This document shows positions 3,193 through 19,296 of a stretch of DNA of 64,000 bases, piece after piece (position 1 is the stretch's first letter; every line of letters starts with the position of its first letter). The stretch is from a virus. Its lineage: Duplodnaviria; Heunggongvirae; Uroviricota; Caudoviricetes. Position numbers and translations under genes: made by a program. The notes below the pieces were generated by a model, which was not told the origin of the DNA, ran no database searches, and worked only from the letters and a program-made list of their open reading frames with translations. The stretch lies in the IMG/VR virus record IMGVR_UViG_2821091796_000001, positions 1-64,000 of that record, one strand, 5' to 3'.

Positions 3193-3740
3193 CACCAGAG
3201 GAGAAGAACGCATGGATTTTATCCGCTATCAACGCTGGATACATCATTCCGCAAAAAGATGGCTCGATCTATCGGCGCAGCTATGCATCGAAGGACGGGA
3301 CGACAGTGGGTGGGGATCTGCGTCTGGTCAAATACACAGTGCAGAAAAAGTCCGGTCGCGTCTTCTTCAATATGACGTGGTTGGGCATCACGAAATCCGT
3401 TCTCGTGAACCGCGTTATCGCCCTCGCGTTTCTGCCAAACCCTCTCAATCTACCGCAGGTTAATCACATCGACGGCAATAAGGAGAATAACGCGCTCTAC
3501 CAGGCGGACGGCACTTATCAGCTCGAATGGTCCACTGGCCGCGATAACGAGAAGCACGCGCATAACACAGGCCTCAAGACCGGACGCGGTTCAGCGAACT
3601 CGAATGCCAAGCTGTCGAGTGCCGACGTTATAGCGATCCGCGAGTCCCACAAGAGCATTTCCGAAATCGCGGCAGAGCGAGGCGTTGCAAGATCAACGAT
3701 CGCCAACATTCTGGCGCGGAAAACCTGGATTCACTTATGA
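3189..3740 (+). CDS. HNH homing endonuclease
   Basis: NHIDGNKENN ... LEWSTGRDNEKHAHN HNH motif plus C-terminal HTH (STIANILARKTW). Confidence 0.7.
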   Translation: MTPEEKNAWILSAINAGYIIPQKDGSIYRRSYASKDGTTVGGDLRLVKYTVQKKSGRVFFNMTWLGITKSVLVNRVIALAFLPNPLNLPQVNHIDGNKENNALYQADGTYQLEWSTGRDNEKHAHNTGLKTGRGSANSNAKLSSADVIAIRESHKSISEIAAERGVARSTIANILARKTWIHL

Positions 3741-7440: not shown

Positions 7441-7603
7441 TAACCACGAAGCCATCGACAAGATTGCCAACGCAATAATTGACAGCCGCCCCGATCTTGA
7501 GCCGTTAAGTCTCGATGAGTGGTTACTTGAGCATTCGGAAAAACTGTCGCTGCGCGAGACGGATGCGGCTATCGCAATCCTTCGTCTCTATGACGAACAA
7601 TAG
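7433..7603 (+). CDS. hypothetical small protein
   Basis: 56 aa from internal ATG. Confidence 0.3.
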   Translation: MTNNHEAIDKIANAIIDSRPDLEPLSLDEWLLEHSEKLSLRETDAAIAILRLYDEQ

Positions 7604-7612
7604 GAGAATAAC

Positions 7613-8998
7613 TTGATTGATGGTTTCAAGCTGATCTCGTGGGGCTTTCCTACGGGCAAATGGTTCGGCTCTGCACTGGAAGAGGCTCAGAACATGGAGC
7701 GTCTCGGAGCGAGCGAACAGGAAATTTTCGACGCGCTTAAGGATCACGTTCCGGTTGAGATCGGCATGCGCACAAACTCCATTCCCTACAGCGTCTTCCT
7801 TGAGCCGGAGAACGACGAAGAGCGTGCAAATCTGGCTTCGGTCAACGCACATATGGACGCTCTTTTGCGAGTTCCTACGATTGTTTCTGGCGCTATCATG
7901 CCGGACGCCTGTCCTGCTGGCTCGCAGCTTGGAACGATCCCGGTAGGCGGTGTCGTTGCGACAAAGGATGCGATTCATCCTGGCTTTCATTCAGCGGATA
8001 TTTGCTGCTCGATGTTCATGACAGTCTTCAATCGTCAGGACGATCTGAAGCGGATCTTGGATATCGCAATGAAGGTTACGCATTTCGGACCTGGCGGCCG
8101 GGAAGACTTTAATATGAGCCCAGCGCTCCATGCTCAGTTCGATCAGAACCACTTCCTAAAGGGTCTGAACAATATCGGTGATTATGCGATGGGAACACAG
8201 GGCGACGGCAATCACTTCCTTTACGTCGGCACGCTCGAATCTACAGGACAGCCAGCGATCGTCACGCATCACGGTTCGCGCAATGTCGGCGCCCAGCTTT
8301 ACAAGCGAGGCATGGCTGCAGCAAAACGGCACACTTCGATTGTGGCACCGCGGATCCCATCGCACAATGCTTGGATCGATGCGAATAGCGCCGATGGCGA
8401 GTCCTATTGGGAGGCACTCCAGATTGTGCGCGAGTGGACGAAGGCCAATCACGCCATAATTCACGATACGATTGCGCGAATCCTCGGTAACAAGGTCGTC
8501 GGGCAAATGTGGAACGAACACAACTTTGTCTTCCGGCGGACAGATGGGCTTTTCTATCACGGAAAAGGCGCAACGCCGTCTTTCAAGGGCTTTGCGGCGG
8601 ACGAAACAGGACGGACTTTGATCCCATTGAATATGAGCGAGCCAATCCTGATCGCTGAACCAACAGATAAGAAAGAAGCCCTTGGCTTTGCGCCGCATGG
8701 TGCCGGACGAAACACTGGACGCAAGAATTATCTGCGCGGTCTAGCCGCGAAGTTTGGAGATCCGGAAGGTCTGTCTCCAATCATGGAGAAAGCAATCTTT
8801 GAAGATCAGACGGAGGGTCTAGACATTCGCTCCTACTCCGGAACGCCAGATTTGTCAGAACTACCTGGCGCTTACAAGAACGCAGCCGCTGTCACGCAGC
8901 AAATCCACAAATTCGGTCTCGCCAATCTGGTGGACTCGGTAATTCCCTACGGCTCAATCATGGCTGGCGAACAGAAGTGGGATAGAGGCAGAAAATGA
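7613..8998 (+). CDS. rtcB: RtcB-family RNA 3'-phosphate ligase
   Basis: GTQGDGNHF, NEHNFVFR, PHGAGRN motifs of RtcB; TTG start after aggaga SD. Confidence 0.75.
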   Translation: MIDGFKLISWGFPTGKWFGSALEEAQNMERLGASEQEIFDALKDHVPVEIGMRTNSIPYSVFLEPENDEERANLASVNAHMDALLRVPTIVSGAIMPDACPAGSQLGTIPVGGVVATKDAIHPGFHSADICCSMFMTVFNRQDDLKRILDIAMKVTHFGPGGREDFNMSPALHAQFDQNHFLKGLNNIGDYAMGTQGDGNHFLYVGTLESTGQPAIVTHHGSRNVGAQLYKRGMAAAKRHTSIVAPRIPSHNAWIDANSADGESYWEALQIVREWTKANHAIIHDTIARILGNKVVGQMWNEHNFVFRRTDGLFYHGKGATPSFKGFAADETGRTLIPLNMSEPILIAEPTDKKEALGFAPHGAGRNTGRKNYLRGLAAKFGDPEGLSPIMEKAIFEDQTEGLDIRSYSGTPDLSELPGAYKNAAAVTQQIHKFGLANLVDSVIPYGSIMAGEQKWDRGRK

Positions 8999-9583: not shown

Positions 9584-9744
9584 CCCCCAGCAACTCTTCG
9601 GAGTGATCATCCTTCCAACCGAGCGAGAAGCATCATGCAATTTTTCCTGGCCAGTCTCGGGTTCGCAGTCATTGCCCTGCTCTTGGGCTACGGCGTCTAC
9701 AAACTGATCGGCGACGTCCGGTTCAATTCCCACAACAAACGCAA

Positions 9745-10597
9745 ATGAGGTTTACCTTGCGTCCAATTCACATTCTATCCGGTATCGTCTTTCTCGCCCT
9801 GGCGTTTCTCAGCGTCACTTCGTTCTACACGGTCGATGAAGGCGAACGAGCGGTGATTATCACTCAAGGAAAGATCGTCGGCGTGTCCGAACCTGGTTTT
9901 CATTGGAAGTGGCCATTCATTACTGAAGCTCATACCGTTTCGCTTCGCGATGGTCTCGCCCAGTATGAGAACATAGAGGCCTATACCCGCGATGCGCAGA
10001 CGGCGACGATTCACAAGGTATCGCGTGAAGGCTGAAACGAAGTCAATCCTTGAGGTCTACACCCGCTACGGCACGGCAGAGAATGCCGTTCGCCAGATGA
10101 TTGATCGCAGGATCTCCGAGAGCCTTGAGCGTGTCTTCGGTCAGTTCACAGCTGATACTGCCATCCAGAAACGTGCTGAGCTGGGCGCGCAGTTCTCCGC
10201 GCAGATCAGGGACGCTATAGGTCCGGTCGAGATTGTGAGTGTCCAGATCGAGAACTTCTCGTTCTCCGATGGCTACGAAAAGAACGTAGCCGAGAAGATG
10301 ACGCAGGAGGTAGAGGTCAAGAAGCTTGAGCAGAAAGCTCTGCAGGCCAAAATCACCGCCGATATCACCGTGACCAATGCGAGGGCCGAGGCTGACGCTA
10401 ATCTTGCCCGCGCAACGGCATCTGCTGAAGGTGTGCGTCTGCAGGGTGAAGCCGAGGCCAGTGCGATTAAAGCGAAGTCTGACGCTCTGCGCGAAAGCCC
10501 GAACCTGGTTGAACTGACCAAAGCCGAGCGATGGGATGGAAAACTGCCGACGAGCTTCGTGCCTGGCTCAACAATTCCCTTCGTCAACATCAAGTAA
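9745..10597 (+). CDS. SPFH/Band-7 (prohibitin/HflKC-like) membrane protein, reading frame interrupted (+1 change near 9992-10035)
   Basis: N-terminal TM helix; SPFH core spans two overlapping track ORFs (9745..10035 and 9992..10597) in different frames; C-terminal coiled coil. Confidence 0.55.
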
Positions 10598-11028: not shown

Positions 11029-11135
11029 ATACCCGATTTCAACCCAAAGTGCTTCGTGAGATAGTAACGATATGACGATTTCGTTATTTCGTTCTCTGAA
11101 CTACAATGCGCTTTCACGCACAAGGAGACGATATA

Positions 11136-11300
11136 ATGAAACGAAATCCGATTGCTCGGGCGCTGGCGTCCGGACACCTCAAACAGCAGAAGATCCGCCC
11201 GAAGAAAGGGAAAGGATCATTTAGACGCAAAAAGGATGACACGGATGCAGATCGACAAGTTCGACAAGATCGCCTACGCGAATATCACACACGCCATTAG
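11136..11300 (+). CDS. ArfA-like (alternative ribosome-rescue factor A family) small protein
   Basis: MKRNPIARALASGHLKQQKIRPKKGKGSFRRKK resembles ArfA core ...LFRQRVEKNKKGKGSYMRK; overlaps next gene in another frame. Confidence 0.4.
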   Translation: MKRNPIARALASGHLKQQKIRPKKGKGSFRRKKDDTDADRQVRQDRLREYHTRH

Positions 11301-15131: not shown

Positions 15132-15610
15132 GACAAATCGCAAGGTATATGTTTGACGCCCTGGATGCCGAAGCTTTCCGCGGCGTCAGAGGCATTCAAG
15201 ATGGTGCTTGGCATGTGAACTGGTCTGTTCGCTCCTACAGGATCAACGACAAGGTAGAAGACAATGTTCTAGTCATCCATGCGATAGAGATTGCTGAGCA
15301 ATACCGTCGTCAGGGATACCTGACCGAAGTGTTTCAAGCAATAATCGACCAAGGTGAGATCGGACAGCAAAAGTTCAACTTTATCCTGTTCGAGAACTGC
15401 GGCGAACACCTTCTTGAGTGCCTTCGAACCAAGCTGATGTTCTCCATAACAGATCCTACCTGGCGTCGACTTGCTCATCGGGAAATCGCTCCGTTTCTGC
15501 CATTCGCCAATCGCGATATAGAAGCGCAGCAGAAGCGTTCGGGATCCCAAGCGCGCATTCCCTCGGAAACGTTGATGGATCGCGTGAGTGACGAACCTCG
15601 CGAATCCTGA
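15128..15610 (+). CDS. hypothetical protein
   Basis: 160 aa ORF. Confidence 0.4.
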   Translation: MRQIARYMFDALDAEAFRGVRGIQDGAWHVNWSVRSYRINDKVEDNVLVIHAIEIAEQYRRQGYLTEVFQAIIDQGEIGQQKFNFILFENCGEHLLECLRTKLMFSITDPTWRRLAHREIAPFLPFANRDIEAQQKRSGSQARIPSETLMDRVSDEPRES

Positions 15611-15675
15611 TCTACCCAATCGCTCCCCTGCGCGCATCTGCTATATTGAATAATGTAAGCAGTTAACGAAAAATA

Positions 15676-15695
15676 GTAAGTCATAATTGATTGAC
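15676..15695. promoter_or_regulatory. palindromic motif copy upstream of tRNA cluster
   Basis: gtaagtcataattgattgac, ~170 nt before tRNA-Met. Confidence 0.5.
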
Positions 15696-15863
15696 ATTTG
15701 GTCCCAGAAATGCGAGGAGATAGACATGAAGTTGTAAGCGTAATTGTCCTGGTAACATCACAAAAGCGCCAACCGCAATAAGCGGGACTTTCTGAGGGAT
15801 GCCTATCTCTCGTGCCTGCTCCGGGGCCTAATCCGGAGCAACCAATTCGCCGAAAGGCAACAT

Positions 15864-15941
15864 TGCGGAGTAGAGAAGTGGTCTATCTCGTCTGGCTCAT
15901 AACCAGAAGATCGTCGGTTCGAATCCGACCTTTCGCAACCA
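15864..15941 (+). tRNA. tRNA-Met (anticodon CAT; could be Ile2/initiator type)
   Basis: hand-folded cloverleaf: acceptor tgcggag/tttcgca (2 GU pairs), D-arm gaga-agtggtcta-tctc, anticodon arm tctgg-ctCATaa-ccaga, T-arm gtcgg-ttcgaat-ccgac with one extra nt before acceptor, encoded CCA. Confidence 0.6.
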
Positions 15942-15978
15942 AATTGGCTGGCGCTGAACAGCGACGGCAACGAACTAC

Positions 15979-16054
15979 GGTGTGGTAGCGGAATGGTTAC
16001 GCAGCAGACTGCAACTCTGCATGGATGCTGGTTCGAGCCCAGCCCACACCTCCA
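15979..16054 (+). tRNA. tRNA-Cys (anticodon GCA)
   Basis: acceptor ggtgtgg/ccacacc, anticodon arm gcaga-ctGCAac-tctgc, T-arm gctgg-ttcgagc-ccagc, discriminator T, encoded CCA. Confidence 0.7.
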
Positions 16055-16247
16055 GAGCACCAACGGGGCGGCTGCAGCCAGAGCCCGTTGCGTAAACGTC
16101 AGCGTAGGCGTGACAGTCGGGAGAGATCCGGCACATTGGTCCCGCCGCTCGAAGACTAAAGGATGGATAGTTCGAAACGTCCTTCTGGTGTCAGGGGTGG
16201 CCCTAGAGAGAGCAAGTGGTCAAGGTCGTGCGCAAGACCAAGATCCA

Positions 16248-16275
16248 AGAGGTTCGACTCCTCGGCGGGGCTCCA
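16248..16275 (+). ncRNA. tRNA-like 3' element (T-arm + acceptor strand + CCA); full tRNA not resolved by hand
   Basis: gagg-ttcgact-cctc then gcggggc-t-cca; no canonical 5' acceptor within 90 nt (possible partner gtcccgc at 16139 would give a 137-nt RNA). Confidence 0.3.
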
Positions 16276-16603
16276 AATTCGCCCGAAAGGGCAACCGAGA
16301 GTGGTCCGGTTCGATCCCGGCTCGTTGACCGAGATCTGGTGAGAAAAGCAGGTTCAACTCCTCGCCTCGCGAATGAGGTTCTCTGATCCATGTGGTGATG
16401 GATGGTCTGACAGCTCGGAAAGACGGCACGATATTCGAATGCTCTTGGGGCTCATTGCAGCCGAGGACTTTTCACAGCGGTAGGTGAAGATAGTCTCAAG
16501 AGCTTTGCAGGGCGCGGTTTGCGCATTCGGGAAGCCCCCTAGCTAGGGGCCGAGAGTTTGGCGGCAGATAGGTTCGCGGCCTCCGAGGTGATCGCCGGAG
16601 GCG

Positions 16604-16631
16604 TGAGGTTCAATTCCTCACCCATGCGCCA
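16604..16631 (+). ncRNA. tRNA-like 3' element (T-arm + acceptor strand + CCA); full tRNA not resolved by hand
   Basis: tgagg-ttcaatt-cctca then cccatgc-g-cca; upstream 7-bp hairpin gcctccg...cggaggc; no matching 5' acceptor found. Confidence 0.3.
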
Positions 16632-16648
16632 TTTCTTCGCGCAGTTTC

Positions 16649-16668
16649 GTCAATCAATGGTGATTGAC
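16649..16668. promoter_or_regulatory. palindromic motif copy
   Basis: gtcaatcaatggtgattgac. Confidence 0.55.
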
Positions 16669-16685
16669 TTCGAGGGGAACCACAA

Positions 16686-16829
16686 ATGCTCGATGACCTA
16701 GATACAGGATTCTTCCATACCAAGCCGCGCAAGAAGGAGCTTGGTGTCGTGACAGCGATTCTTGCCATCACCGTCGCGGCCGGCATCGTTGCGCTGCTAA
16801 CCGTCGTGGTCGACTTTATCCAGAACTAA
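16686..16829 (+). CDS. small hydrophobic membrane protein (47 aa, not in ORF track)
   Basis: MLDDLDTGFFHTKPRKKELGVVTAILAITVAAGIVALLTVVVDFIQN; palindromic motif 17 nt upstream. Confidence 0.35.
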   Translation: MLDDLDTGFFHTKPRKKELGVVTAILAITVAAGIVALLTVVVDFIQN

Positions 16830-18000: not shown

Positions 18001-19296
18001 ATGACAAAGACTATTTCCACAATTATCGGTGGGGCGCTTCTTCTAACCAGTGTCGCTACGGCAGCTCAGGCAGGTGGCCTTGAGCGCGGTGGTTACAACT
18101 GGGATCTCCTCTTCAGTGAAGAGCGTTTTGCGACCGAGGGCGGCGTGATCTATGTAATGCCTGATCGCAAGATCAAGAATGCCAAGGATACCTCCACAAA
18201 TCCGCGCCTTGGTCAGGACAATGAGAATTACAAAAAGTCCACAGCCAGTGAAACACCAGACTACTCGGTTTATAAGTTTGGTGCCAAGGTTGGCATCACC
18301 CCGGATTTGGACTGCCTTGGCTCCTACAGCCAGCCATGGGGCGTTCACACGAAGCCAGGTGCCAATTGGGCTGGTGACAATTCGAACATTGAAACGAAGA
18401 TCAGCTCCGACGATTGGGGCCTGACGTGCTCTTACAAATTCCAAGTTACTGAAAAAGGTTCGTTCCGAGTAATCGGCGGCGTTTCCTATCAGGAAGTCGA
18501 GGGTTTCAAGACACGCATGGTCAATGGCGGCATTCCTCTTTCACCTTACGGTAAAGCGGGTTTTGACGGCACCGGTCGTCTGGAACTTAAAGGCGACGGT
18601 GTAGGTTGGCGCATCGGTGGTGCATACGAAATTCCAGAAATCGCGCTCCGTGCCAGCGTCATGTATAATGCGGCCGTGGATCTCGGAGAAGTCGGCGGAA
18701 CTCTCGACCTGAGAGAAATTCCTGGTGCGTTGGCAACTCCTTCAAACCCACTTCCTGGCCGGATTACCGACGTTTATGGCCACGCGAAAATGCCACAGTC
18801 CGTTGAAATCAAACTTCAGAGCGGTTTTGCTCCAGGTTGGCTTGCTTACGGTTCGGTTAAGTGGGTCGACTGGAGTGTGCTGGACGTTATCGCGTTTTGC
18901 CCTGTTGCAACCAAGCCCAGAGGCGGTTGTTCTGCGAGTTCTTCAAATCGTGCAACATCGCTTGACCTGATGTTCCAGGATGGCTGGACGGTAACCGCAG
19001 GCGTCGGTCACAAATTCAACGACCATTGGAGCGGTCAGCTTCAAGTTAGCTGGGACAAGGGCACCACAACGGGTTTGACCACACAGACAGACACCTATCT
19101 GCTCTCGTCCGGTATCGCGTATTCACCAAACAAGAATGTTGAAATTCGTCTTGGCGGCGCAATCGGTTGGCTCTCGTCAGGATCCTACGGCCCAACAAAG
19201 TGCACTGGCAACCAGCCATGCGGCACAGATGTGTCCTATGACTTCGGTGATGACCTCGTGACCGCCGTATCATTGTCTGGCAAGATGAAGTTCTAA
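18001..19296 (+). CDS. FadL/OMPP1/TodX-family outer-membrane beta-barrel protein
   Basis: signal peptide ending AAQA, Gly/aromatic-rich beta-strand pattern, C-terminal ...SLSGKMKF ending in Phe; SD ggggagga. Confidence 0.6.
   Translation: MTKTISTIIGGALLLTSVATAAQAGGLERGGYNWDLLFSEERFATEGGVIYVMPDRKIKNAKDTSTNPRLGQDNENYKKSTASETPDYSVYKFGAKVGITPDLDCLGSYSQPWGVHTKPGANWAGDNSNIETKISSDDWGLTCSYKFQVTEKGSFRVIGGVSYQEVEGFKTRMVNGGIPLSPYGKAGFDGTGRLELKGDGVGWRIGGAYEIPEIALRASVMYNAAVDLGEVGGTLDLREIPGALATPSNPLPGRITDVYGHAKMPQSVEIKLQSGFAPGWLAYGSVKWVDWSVLDVIAFCPVATKPRGGCSASSSNRATSLDLMFQDGWTVTAGVGHKFNDHWSGQLQVSWDKGTTTGLTTQTDTYLLSSGIAYSPNKNVEIRLGGAIGWLSSGSYGPTKCTGNQPCGTDVSYDFGDDLVTAVSLSGKMKF

Follow-up and report, generated by a model that had tools for sequence, protein, structure and literature searches.

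The stretch of DNA analyzed here (the window) comprises 64,000 nucleotides, positions 1 to 64,000 of the IMG/VR virus record IMGVR_UViG_2821091796_000001 (Caudoviricetes), and carries at 15611-16685 a 1.07-kb region free of open reading frames (ORFs), hereafter the RNA island. Its downstream half (~590 bases) had been flagged in an earlier note as ORF-free, structured RNA whose tRNA-like hairpins yield no additional tRNAs. That note saw something real and is right that the region is not a longer standard tRNA cluster, although three of the seven T-arms it listed are weak. Two ordinary tRNA genes with encoded CCA lie on the plus strand of the island, tRNA-Met (CAU) at 15864-15941 and tRNA-Cys (GCA) at 15979-16054, both identified by ARAGORN and scoring 56.4 and 60.9 bits, respectively, with the Rfam tRNA model. 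They are followed on the same strand by a 137-nt tRNA-like element (X1), a pair of T-arm hairpins joined by a conserved linker (the double T-arm motif) with further hairpins after it, and a third T-arm with an encoded CCA. No gene is called across the island in an identical public contig and mechanically derived ORFs have no Pfam matches, in line with the claim that the region is non-coding.

The T-loop consensus GGTTCRANNCC occurs eight times in the window versus 0.95 occurrences expected, a count reached in none of 100 shuffles. Six of the eight copies fall at 15916-16617, all on the plus strand, one within tRNA-Met (15916), one within tRNA-Cys (16030) and four in the flagged region (16251, 16308, 16351 and 16607); the enrichment is real and strand-consistent. 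These four exact sites are the part of the seven listed T-arms that stands, with stems of 4-6 bp at 16249-16263, 16304-16321 and 16603-16621 and a degenerate one at 16348-16365. The proposed T-arm at 16171 reads GTTCGAAAC and sits within the 12-nt loop of a 7-bp hairpin, and those at 16434 (ATTCGAATG) and 16573 (GGTTCGCGGCC) depart from the T-loop consensus. Elsewhere in the window, an exact GGTTCAATTCC at 9720-9730 lies inside a 37-aa membrane-peptide-like ORF (9635-9748), has no T-stem and was judged a chance match.

ARAGORN and Rfam at gathering thresholds were run on the whole window, and a permissive Rfam scan (E ≤ 10, 4227 families) on 15600-16750. Apart from tRNA-Met and tRNA-Cys, no tRNA, transfer-messenger RNA (tmRNA) or any other Rfam family was found, and the permissive scan adds chance matches only. 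Likewise, ARAGORN in default, intron and mitochondrial modes and in its tmRNA search, all at default thresholds, reports no extra tRNA or tmRNA, and no part of the flagged region passes as a cloverleaf with RF00005 or ARAGORN. Lowering the ARAGORN threshold to 60-80% yields only mutually overlapping calls with mismatched stems, which we rejected as hidden canonical tRNAs. The model of the Y RNA YrlA (RF02553) has no match in the window; on one contig with the double T-arm motif (L017) it gives sub-threshold chance matches only, at 23-28 bits against a gathering score of 69 and on true tRNAs. Covariance models of GOLLD and ROOL match neither the window nor any double T-arm locus, with a control match of 316 bits to GOLLD on contig L023.

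The double T-arm motif (16301-16367, plus strand) consists of T-arm 1 (16304-16321), the linker TCGTTGACCGAGATCTGGTGAGA (16322-16347) and T-arm 2 (16348-16365). A permissive blastn search against plasmids returned a 39-nt match of 90% identity in an ORF-free stretch of the Ralstonia mannitolilytica plasmid pRMAN01, with a second T-loop hairpin after it. Pattern scans added eight more distinct copies in IMG/VR and metagenome contigs (another metagenome match duplicates the pRMAN01 copy), and blastn with the consensus extended the set to copies of greater divergence, carried by Pseudomonas phages D6 and Touem01 and by Vibrio plasmids of 0.9 Mb. Altogether, 13 distinct copies were collected from alpha-, beta- and gammaproteobacterial phages and plasmids, with megaplasmids and phage-plasmids among them, and often adjoin tRNAs. 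The family is defined by T-arm 1, a linker of the form TCGYTRR-CNGAG-N3-4-GG-N4-5 and T-arm 2, on the tRNA strand, both hairpins having 5 bp and the T-loop UUCGAUU and the linker being nearly invariant at 25-30 nt. Its core of ~67 nt, [GCCGG-TTCGATT-CCGGC]-TCGTTGGCCGAGGTCTGGTGAGA-N2-6-[5-bp stem-TTCGAKT-stem], is nearly invariant in ten of the 13 copies. These loci have almost no genes in common with the window, so the motif occurs across elements that are not related. In L017 it is enclosed by a ten-tRNA array, with tRNA-Leu ending 5 nt ahead of it; in phage D6, tRNA-Leu precedes it by about 30 nt. It is always on the strand of the neighboring tRNAs. No double T-arm copy has an Rfam match and none of the five annotated public records holding the motif annotates it. 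Its core sequence was not found in the literature in a phage context, a statement to be read with the 8,495 unnamed IMG/VR candidate RNAs (Fremin et al. 2023) left unchecked. L031 and tRNAs in L023 and L026 match as DNA patterns and were excluded from the family.

Both hairpins covary. A covariance model (R1) was built from ten sequences including the window copy, which therefore matches it by construction, so that its 65.3 bits (E about 1e-17) are partly circular; three members outside the seed score 61, 58 and 32 bits. In the model-fitted alignment of all 13 copies, 96.1% of cells are paired and five of ten pairs have changed on both sides (19 cells), two of five in helix 1 and three of five in helix 2. 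None of 500 shuffles reaches the observed score, and slid partners give at most 60% pairing. A count over ten sequences on the seed alignment (A6, hand-trimmed linkers) points in the same direction. T-stem 1 is found as GCCGG/CCGGC, GCGGG/CCCGC, GATGG/CCATC and GTCGG/CCGGC, and T-stem 2 as eight different stems. Compensatory changes in both hairpins speak for selection acting on RNA pairing.

Other interpretations of the motif were tried and rejected. Read as a coding frame ("GRFDSGSLAEVW*"), it does not end in a consistent stop, synonymous changes do not predominate, and the L017 copy directly follows a tRNA. The linker segment GGCTCGT-TG-GCCGAG resembles a tRNA 5' half (acceptor strand, U8, G9 and class-II D arm), but in Touem01 and the Vibrio plasmids covariation ties its first three bases to T-stem 1, and no 3' partner is conserved, matches being at chance level save for a suggestive GCGAGCC-CCA in L020. 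An ARAGORN call of the L020 copy as tRNA-Ser(CGA), with T-arm 1 as anticodon arm, has two acceptor mismatches, and L017 lacks the room for a 5' half. No consistent duplex forms between the flanks of the motif. As a separate observation, GGCTCGT after T-arm 1 of L020 (3208-3266) is perfectly partnered by GCGAGCC, which is followed by CCA, 4 nt after T-arm 2; the pairing would yield a 59-nt anticodon-less mini-tRNA and occurs in no other member. In L019, a Proteo-phage-1 RNA (Rfam; 7600-7679, 55 bits against a gathering score of 42) lies ~350 nt upstream of the motif, with no ORF of at least 70 aa between them on that strand, and its presence near the motif suggests that similar multi-RNA islands exist in other proteobacterial phages.

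Conservation continues beyond T-arm 2. Downstream modules common to the window (16365-16426, plus strand), L030 and L020 come in one order, comprising a small hairpin, a 6-bp hairpin with a GGUG-containing loop and the sequence GGYCUGACAG with a GAAAGA-loop hairpin. In the window, these are hairpin a (16365-16378), hairpin b (ATCCAT-GTGGTG-ATGGAT, 16386-16403) and M2 (GGTCTGACAGCTCGGAAAGACGG, 16404-16426). L030 keeps module order and spacing, but its stems, CGGC/GCCG and CCGGCT-TGGGTG-AGCCGG, differ completely. M2 is 91% identical to positions 4379-4401 of L014, the Sinorhizobium phage-plasmid pLM21S1, where it lies 7 nt before tRNA-Cys. This 23-nt element is non-coding in the window and overlaps the end of a 166-aa gene in pLM21S1 (L014 3885-4401; NZ_KM659098.1 31980-32496). 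The gene ends inside a conserved GGTCTGACAG...GAAAGACGG element; it is annotated as hypothetical and looks HNH-like by eye. A second arrangement is seen in L017, D6, the Vibrio plasmids and pRMAN01, where TGATTG comes after the motif, then a variable hairpin and finally AAGTAACTCTGGTGAGACAAA.

The linker itself may be paired. Its invariant UCGUUGG, directly after T-stem 1, can pair with a near CUGGUGA, with 90% of cells paired and no double-sided change; in the second subfamily it can pair instead with a far copy of CUGGUGA, as predicted by RNAalifold. As a lead from this modeling, either pairing would place a 7-bp helix under the 5-bp T-stem, giving the 12-bp length of a tRNA acceptor/T branch. 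The comparisons support the reading of 16301-16367 as a structured, tRNA-like non-coding RNA (ncRNA), which probably continues to 16426. Among the options raised in the earlier note this one gains support; intron-containing, permuted or split tRNAs are unsupported.

Two further modules end like tRNAs, each with a 7-nt acceptor-type strand, a discriminator and an encoded CCA (ends at 16275 and 16631), as had been described. The first terminates X1 (16139-16275, plus strand), whose 3' end reads GAGG-TTCGACT-CCTC, GGCGGGGC, T and CCA. Its closing stem joins 16139-16146 to 16264-16271 (GTCCCGCC/GGCGGGGC); the earlier note had named gtcccgc at 16139 as sole partner, implying a 137-nt molecule, and this indeed is the only perfect upstream 7-mer partner and extends to 8 bp. 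The T-stem has 4 bp around the loop TTCGACT (16249-16263), followed by U and CCA at 16272-16275. X1 thereby shows a 12-bp acceptor branch split 8/4 with U73 and CCA, as in irregular tRNAs, in a single sequence that offers no covariation; the centroid fold of the element contains both the closing stem and the T-arm (z = -1.75). Between the 5' acceptor strand and the T-stem, 103 nt form three hairpins with loops of 12, 4 and 8 nt, and this interior holds no anticodon arm, tRNA-Sec-like D arm or long V-arm at cloverleaf distances. The T-arm and CCA part of X1 has no homologue in the phage and plasmid collections. In the second module (16603-16631, plus strand), T-arm 3 has a 6-bp stem and the loop TTCAATT, (G)TGAGG-TTCAATT-CCTCA(C), and precedes CCCATGC, G and CCA. 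Upstream, the best partners pair with six of its seven acceptor positions irrespective of distance, and the single candidate at tRNA distance pairs with five, bearing out the statement that no matching 5' acceptor strand lies there. Its CCA overlaps a hairpin, TGCGC-N9-GCGCA, at 16625-16643. The label of tRNA 3'-half-like modules suits these two and not the others, and neither is conserved in the relatives found. The CCA-ended modules would be either tRNA-like 3' ends of a stable RNA or relics of tRNA genes.

The units of the island are set apart by short separators, here termed punctuation. The relatives L005 and L006 were recognized by an orthologue of the 93-aa protein encoded downstream (~63% identical to that of the window). 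L005 has an ORF-free stretch with tRNA-Met and L006 an ORF-free island with a permuted alphaproteobacterial tmRNA (tag ANDNVPVALAIAA, 117 bits); in pLM21S1 the island holds unidentified modules, with tRNA-Cys about 0.5 kb beyond. The separators are the same in all four islands and the cargo differs. Punctuation A (15941-15975, plus strand) reads AAATTGG-CTGGCGCTGAACAGCGACGG-CAAC in the window, has the general form AAATT(C/G)G-CTGGCGCTGAAYAGCGACGG-CAAC and is conserved in L005 and L006, with 92-96% identity between the window and either relative and 100% between the two relatives, the flanking protein being only ~63% identical. Punctuation B, of the general form WWTTYG-CC(C)-GAAW-GG(G)-CAAC, occurs twice on the plus strand of the window. 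B1 (CAATTC-GCC-GAAA-GGC-AAC, 15843-15862) is 95% identical to pLM21S1 (L014) 3368-3389, and B2 (AAATTC-GCCC-GAAA-GGGC-AAC, 16275-16297) is unique in the window at up to three mismatches. The B stems covary among copies (GCC/GGC, GCCC/GGGC, GCTC/GAGC and GCGC/GCGC, with variants in L005, L006, L014 and L019), and the element is confined to these islands, looser chance pattern matches aside. In the window, punctuation stands directly after the CCA of a hairpin ending at 15844, of tRNA-Met and of X1. RNase E prefers RN|WUU and separates polycistronic tRNAs in E. coli. We infer that punctuation is a processing site of an RNase E-type endonuclease, because A-A|A-U-U right after CCA fits this preference. 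A search of GTDB genomes with the punctuation-A pattern gave only coincidences in coding sequence (LALNSDGN), which were discarded. The conserved punctuation hairpins provide a sequence handle for locating similar RNA islands.

Among the remaining features of the island, the minihelix with AACCA that had been noted at 15819-15844 is real and lies at 15817-15844 (plus strand), where a 9-bp hairpin of -16 kcal/mol precedes CAACCA. L005 and L006 have a 6-bp CCGGTG-N8-CACCGG hairpin at this place with no CCA after it, so the hairpin is conserved and its AACCA is not. A module at 16079-16130 (plus strand) recurs in pLM21S1, where 53 nt of an ORF-free stretch of NZ_KM659098.1 are 83% identical to it. 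A stable hairpin, GCCTCCG-N10-CGGAGGC, at 16579-16602 (plus strand, -13.4 kcal/mol) is not conserved elsewhere. At the start of the island, CTATAT (15641-15646, plus strand) is a candidate -10 element, with CTATAT or CTATAA at the equivalent place in L005 and L006; it fits the sigma-70 -10 consensus of Rhizobiales. The island opens with a conserved mini-ORF preceded by a strong Shine-Dalgarno sequence (15716-15737), ATG AAG TTG TAA (MKL*) in the window, ATG AAG CTT TAT TAG in L005 (8096-8110) and ATG AAG CTT TAA in L006 (5663-5674). In the window its Shine-Dalgarno sequence and start codon are paired with 15801-15813 (11 pairs and one A-C mismatch), a stem that surfaced as a chance Rfam match.

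The gene neighborhood identifies the element and its host. The portal proteins of Rhizobium phage RHEph10 and Salmonella phage SSU5 share 65% and about 51% identity, respectively, with the one encoded here, and other genes of the window are typical of large tailed phages (tape measure, RIIB, helicase, nicotinamide phosphoribosyltransferase and RtcB RNA ligase). On these grounds, the sequence assigns the element to SSU5/RHEph10-like phages or phage-plasmids of a rhizobial host, Phyllobacterium myrsinacearum; SSU5-like elements are plasmid prophages. Flanking proteins are 100% identical to those on a 118,187-bp contig of P. myrsinacearum, and a 20-kb stretch identical to the window is present in a public read-set assembly. 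No close relatives of the window were found in IMG/VR by protein-based scans or in a collection of 5.8 billion proteins, and exact look-ups of window proteins recovered only an identical contig. In the phage group comprising the window, L005 and L006, functions of RNA repair and ribosome rescue are encoded upstream of the island: RtcB in the window (7613-8998, 7 kb upstream of the island) and in L005 (1-817), an ArfA-family ORF in L005 (4933-5043), a weak ArfA-like ORF in the window (11106-11300; 22.6 bits, below the cut-off of 25.5) and, instead of it, the permuted tmRNA in L006 (5957-6255). Downstream, 1.4 kb from the island, a 431-aa ORF (18001-19296) matches outer-membrane beta-barrel families (Toluene_X, and OMP_b-brl faintly) and has no PHROG match. 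Within 10 kb on either side of the island, neither an integrase/recombinase family nor a Ro60/TROVE family is recorded.

We give about even weight to the view that the punctuated plus-strand island yields tRNA-Met, tRNA-Cys and tRNA-mimicking structured RNAs that are handled by the host tRNA machinery. The island would be a single plus-strand transcription unit giving rise to several small stable RNAs, cut apart at the punctuation (an A/U-rich AAAUUC strand, a GNRA-type hairpin and CAAC), presumably by RNase E. At least two further structured RNAs may be released, X1 (about 16094-16275) and X2 (about 16298-16631), which are not tRNAs but assembled from tRNA parts, X2 beginning with the double T-arm member and each ending in a T-arm, an acceptor-like strand and NCCA. 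Their T-arms, and possibly 12-bp stacks of T-arm and helix, could engage host tRNA enzymes, with 3' trimming exonucleases, the CCA-adding enzyme, RNase P, TruB and TrmA as candidates, and the mature RNAs may then act in the interplay of the phage with host tRNA and translation, perhaps by decoying enzymes or toxins directed at tRNA. More tentatively, and with far more doubt than belief, the T-arm pair and the modules following it might constitute a widespread phage and plasmid ncRNA family, new as such, with a 12-bp branch capped by T-arm 1, switching between two folds and a decoy or sponge role. If so, the RtcB, ArfA and tmRNA genes of this phage group would be complemented by a double T-arm decoy for host enzymes or defence toxins that bind the elbow or acceptor branch of tRNA.

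Several observations weigh against this account of processed tRNA mimics. The 586-nt region as a whole, which the earlier note took to be structured, is thermodynamically ordinary (z = -0.07, plus strand), ruling out one large stable fold across it. A generic scan found no promoter or terminator at the expected places and did not call CTATAT. The closest relatives, L005 and L006, have no T-arm module at all, and therefore none of these modules is needed by the phage lineage. T-arm 2 of the window is the most degenerate of the family, with three plain pairs, or five with one bulged C, so that this copy could be decaying. The 13-copy covariation was counted on an alignment fitted to the model. 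Chance could account for the 8-bp closing stem of X1, an 8-mer partner being expected ~0.2 times within 200 nt by our estimate when G-U is allowed; the CCA-ended modules have no homologue in the collections searched and their tRNA-like ends rest on a single sequence. Co-transcription, RNase E processing, mimicry and a role in host conflict are inferred steps.

Alternatively, the island may once have been a longer tRNA array in which all genes but those for tRNA-Met and tRNA-Cys were broken by deletions and rearrangements, the leftover T-arms and acceptor/CCA ends being functionless, a possibility we take seriously while considering it unlikely. It would account for two CCA-ended modules with no matching 5' halves at tRNA distance, for the mismatched cloverleaves that are all ARAGORN returns at low thresholds, for the degenerate T-arm 2, for the fast turnover of cargo between relatives and for modules that are missing in the nearest relatives or, when CCA-ended, have no homologue in phage and plasmid collections; U73-CCA after a TTCGACT loop also resembles the 3' ends of E. 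coli tRNA-Cys or tRNA-Gly. Decay does not explain, however, why 16301-16426 belongs to modules that phages and plasmids of no close kinship have retained through compensatory changes; the L017 motif lies 5 nt after an intact tRNA with no room for a 5' half, and T-loop spacings of 36-57 nt are too short for a simple decayed array. Improbable in our judgment are working tRNAs of non-canonical build, with X1 as an 8/4 allo-tRNA-like or extra-arm form, or split or permuted halves joined by the phage RtcB. The rtcB gene 7 kb upstream would suit the latter, but phage RtcB is commonly tied to tRNA repair and hence calls for no split tRNA; we saw no complementary leader and trailer or bulge-helix-bulge, and downstream partner matches are at chance level. 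The 8-bp acceptor-like stem, 4-bp T-stem, U73 and encoded CCA of X1 do recall the irregular 8/4 tRNAs reported in bacteria and phage tRNA clusters (PMC5389517), yet its gap of 103 nt compares with ~58 estimated for an allo-tRNA, no hairpin with a 7-nt anticodon loop is in the right place, and neither the 4227-family Rfam scan nor ARAGORN in intron mode at default gives an extra tRNA.

A diverged or decaying tmRNA is the reading to which we attach the least probability. X2 would then take the place held in L006 by the two-piece tmRNA, which is flanked by the same punctuation in a unit of 329 nt versus 334 nt for X2, and ARAGORN at a 70% threshold indeed proposes a permuted tmRNA across 15962-16633 with the tag VGEDSLKSFAGRGLRIREAP. 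We rejected this call, as its 3' domain is taken from the real tRNA-Cys and the sequence proposed as tag is not tag-like. Moreover, the tmRNA models RF00023, RF01849 and RF04321 have no window match at E ≤ 10, with the L006 tmRNA as a working positive control at 117 bits; the region has no G3-U70 acceptor, the tRNA-Ala-like feature of tmRNA; no reading frame ends in a tag-like peptide, confirming the negative result of the earlier note; and apart from punctuation there is no similarity to the L006 tmRNA. Nearly as remote, we think, is that the modules act as DNA, as attP sites or att scars made of tRNA 3' fragments or as targets of homing endonucleases. The 3' part of a tRNA gene is a frequent component of attP sites, T-arm 1 and the linker are conserved in sequence well past the need of a plain hairpin, the pLM21S1 gene beside M2 and tRNA-Cys is HNH-like by eye, and the tRNA region of D6 has an annotated HNH endonuclease gene. 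Against this reading stand the absence of recorded integrase or recombinase families within 10 kb on each side, the plasmid-prophage nature of SSU5-like elements, the compensatory changes in both hairpins, which point to selection on RNA pairing, and the constant location on the strand of the neighboring tRNAs.

Phage tRNA clusters are usually read as sets for codon supply or anti-defence, and the gaps left by tRNA finders stay blank. The island studied here suggests that such blank space holds conserved tRNA-derived RNAs. Should these RNAs mimic tRNA toward host tRNA enzymes or tRNA-targeting toxins, the contest between phage and host over tRNA would gain an RNA level, and mimicry is testable since the motif is present in the cultivable Pseudomonas phages D6 and Touem01.

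Irregular tRNAs, among known systems, include 8/4 and 9/3 forms (allo-tRNAs), forms with extra loops or an inferred five-stem junction, and polycistrons in bacteria (Mukai et al. 2017, PMC5389517); tRNA clusters of alphaproteobacterial phages include tRNA-Ser and tRNA-His of the 8/4 type, and for some allo-tRNA-like RNAs a regulatory role outside translation has been suggested (PMC5389517). Like the island modules, they escape or confuse standard tRNA finders, and X1 has the same 8 + 4 = 12-bp acceptor branch, U73 and CCA. The cloverleaf of allo-tRNAs is complete, with a long D-stem and tetraloop, an anticodon arm and a long V-arm, whereas X1 has 103 nt of other hairpins instead, and the double T-arm motif differs from irregular tRNAs by having no acceptor ends. 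The bacterial Y RNA YrlA is reportedly an ncRNA with a tRNA-like module, is said to occur in phages too, and is described as having a T-arm with GGUUCGAAUCC and as being encoded beside rtcB in Salmonella. The window phage also encodes RtcB; YrlA has one T-arm and a Ro-binding stem, unlike the double T-arm motif. In eukaryotes, the mascRNA element of MALAT1, a tRNA-like element in a longer non-coding transcript, recruits RNase P, RNase Z and the CCA-adding enzyme. The likeness lies in a tRNA-like element within a non-coding transcript, and the difference in the other domain of life and in RNase P cleavage, for which the island gives no evidence. Phage T4 encodes two small stable RNAs of unknown function among its tRNA genes, species 1 and 2 (rnaC and rnaD), of about 120-140 nt, which are co-transcribed with the tRNAs and matured by the tRNA-processing machinery. 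They match X1 in size class and are not known to have paired T-arms or punctuation hairpins. On L023 (8554-9050, minus strand), GOLLD RNA is directly followed by tRNA-like sequence ending in GGTTCGATTCCGGCTCGTTGC, with a tmRNA 0.9 kb off. GOLLD and ROOL are large, ornate phage ncRNAs that, like the island of the window, typically lie beside tRNA genes; the window island differs from them in being modular, with modules shuffled between relatives.

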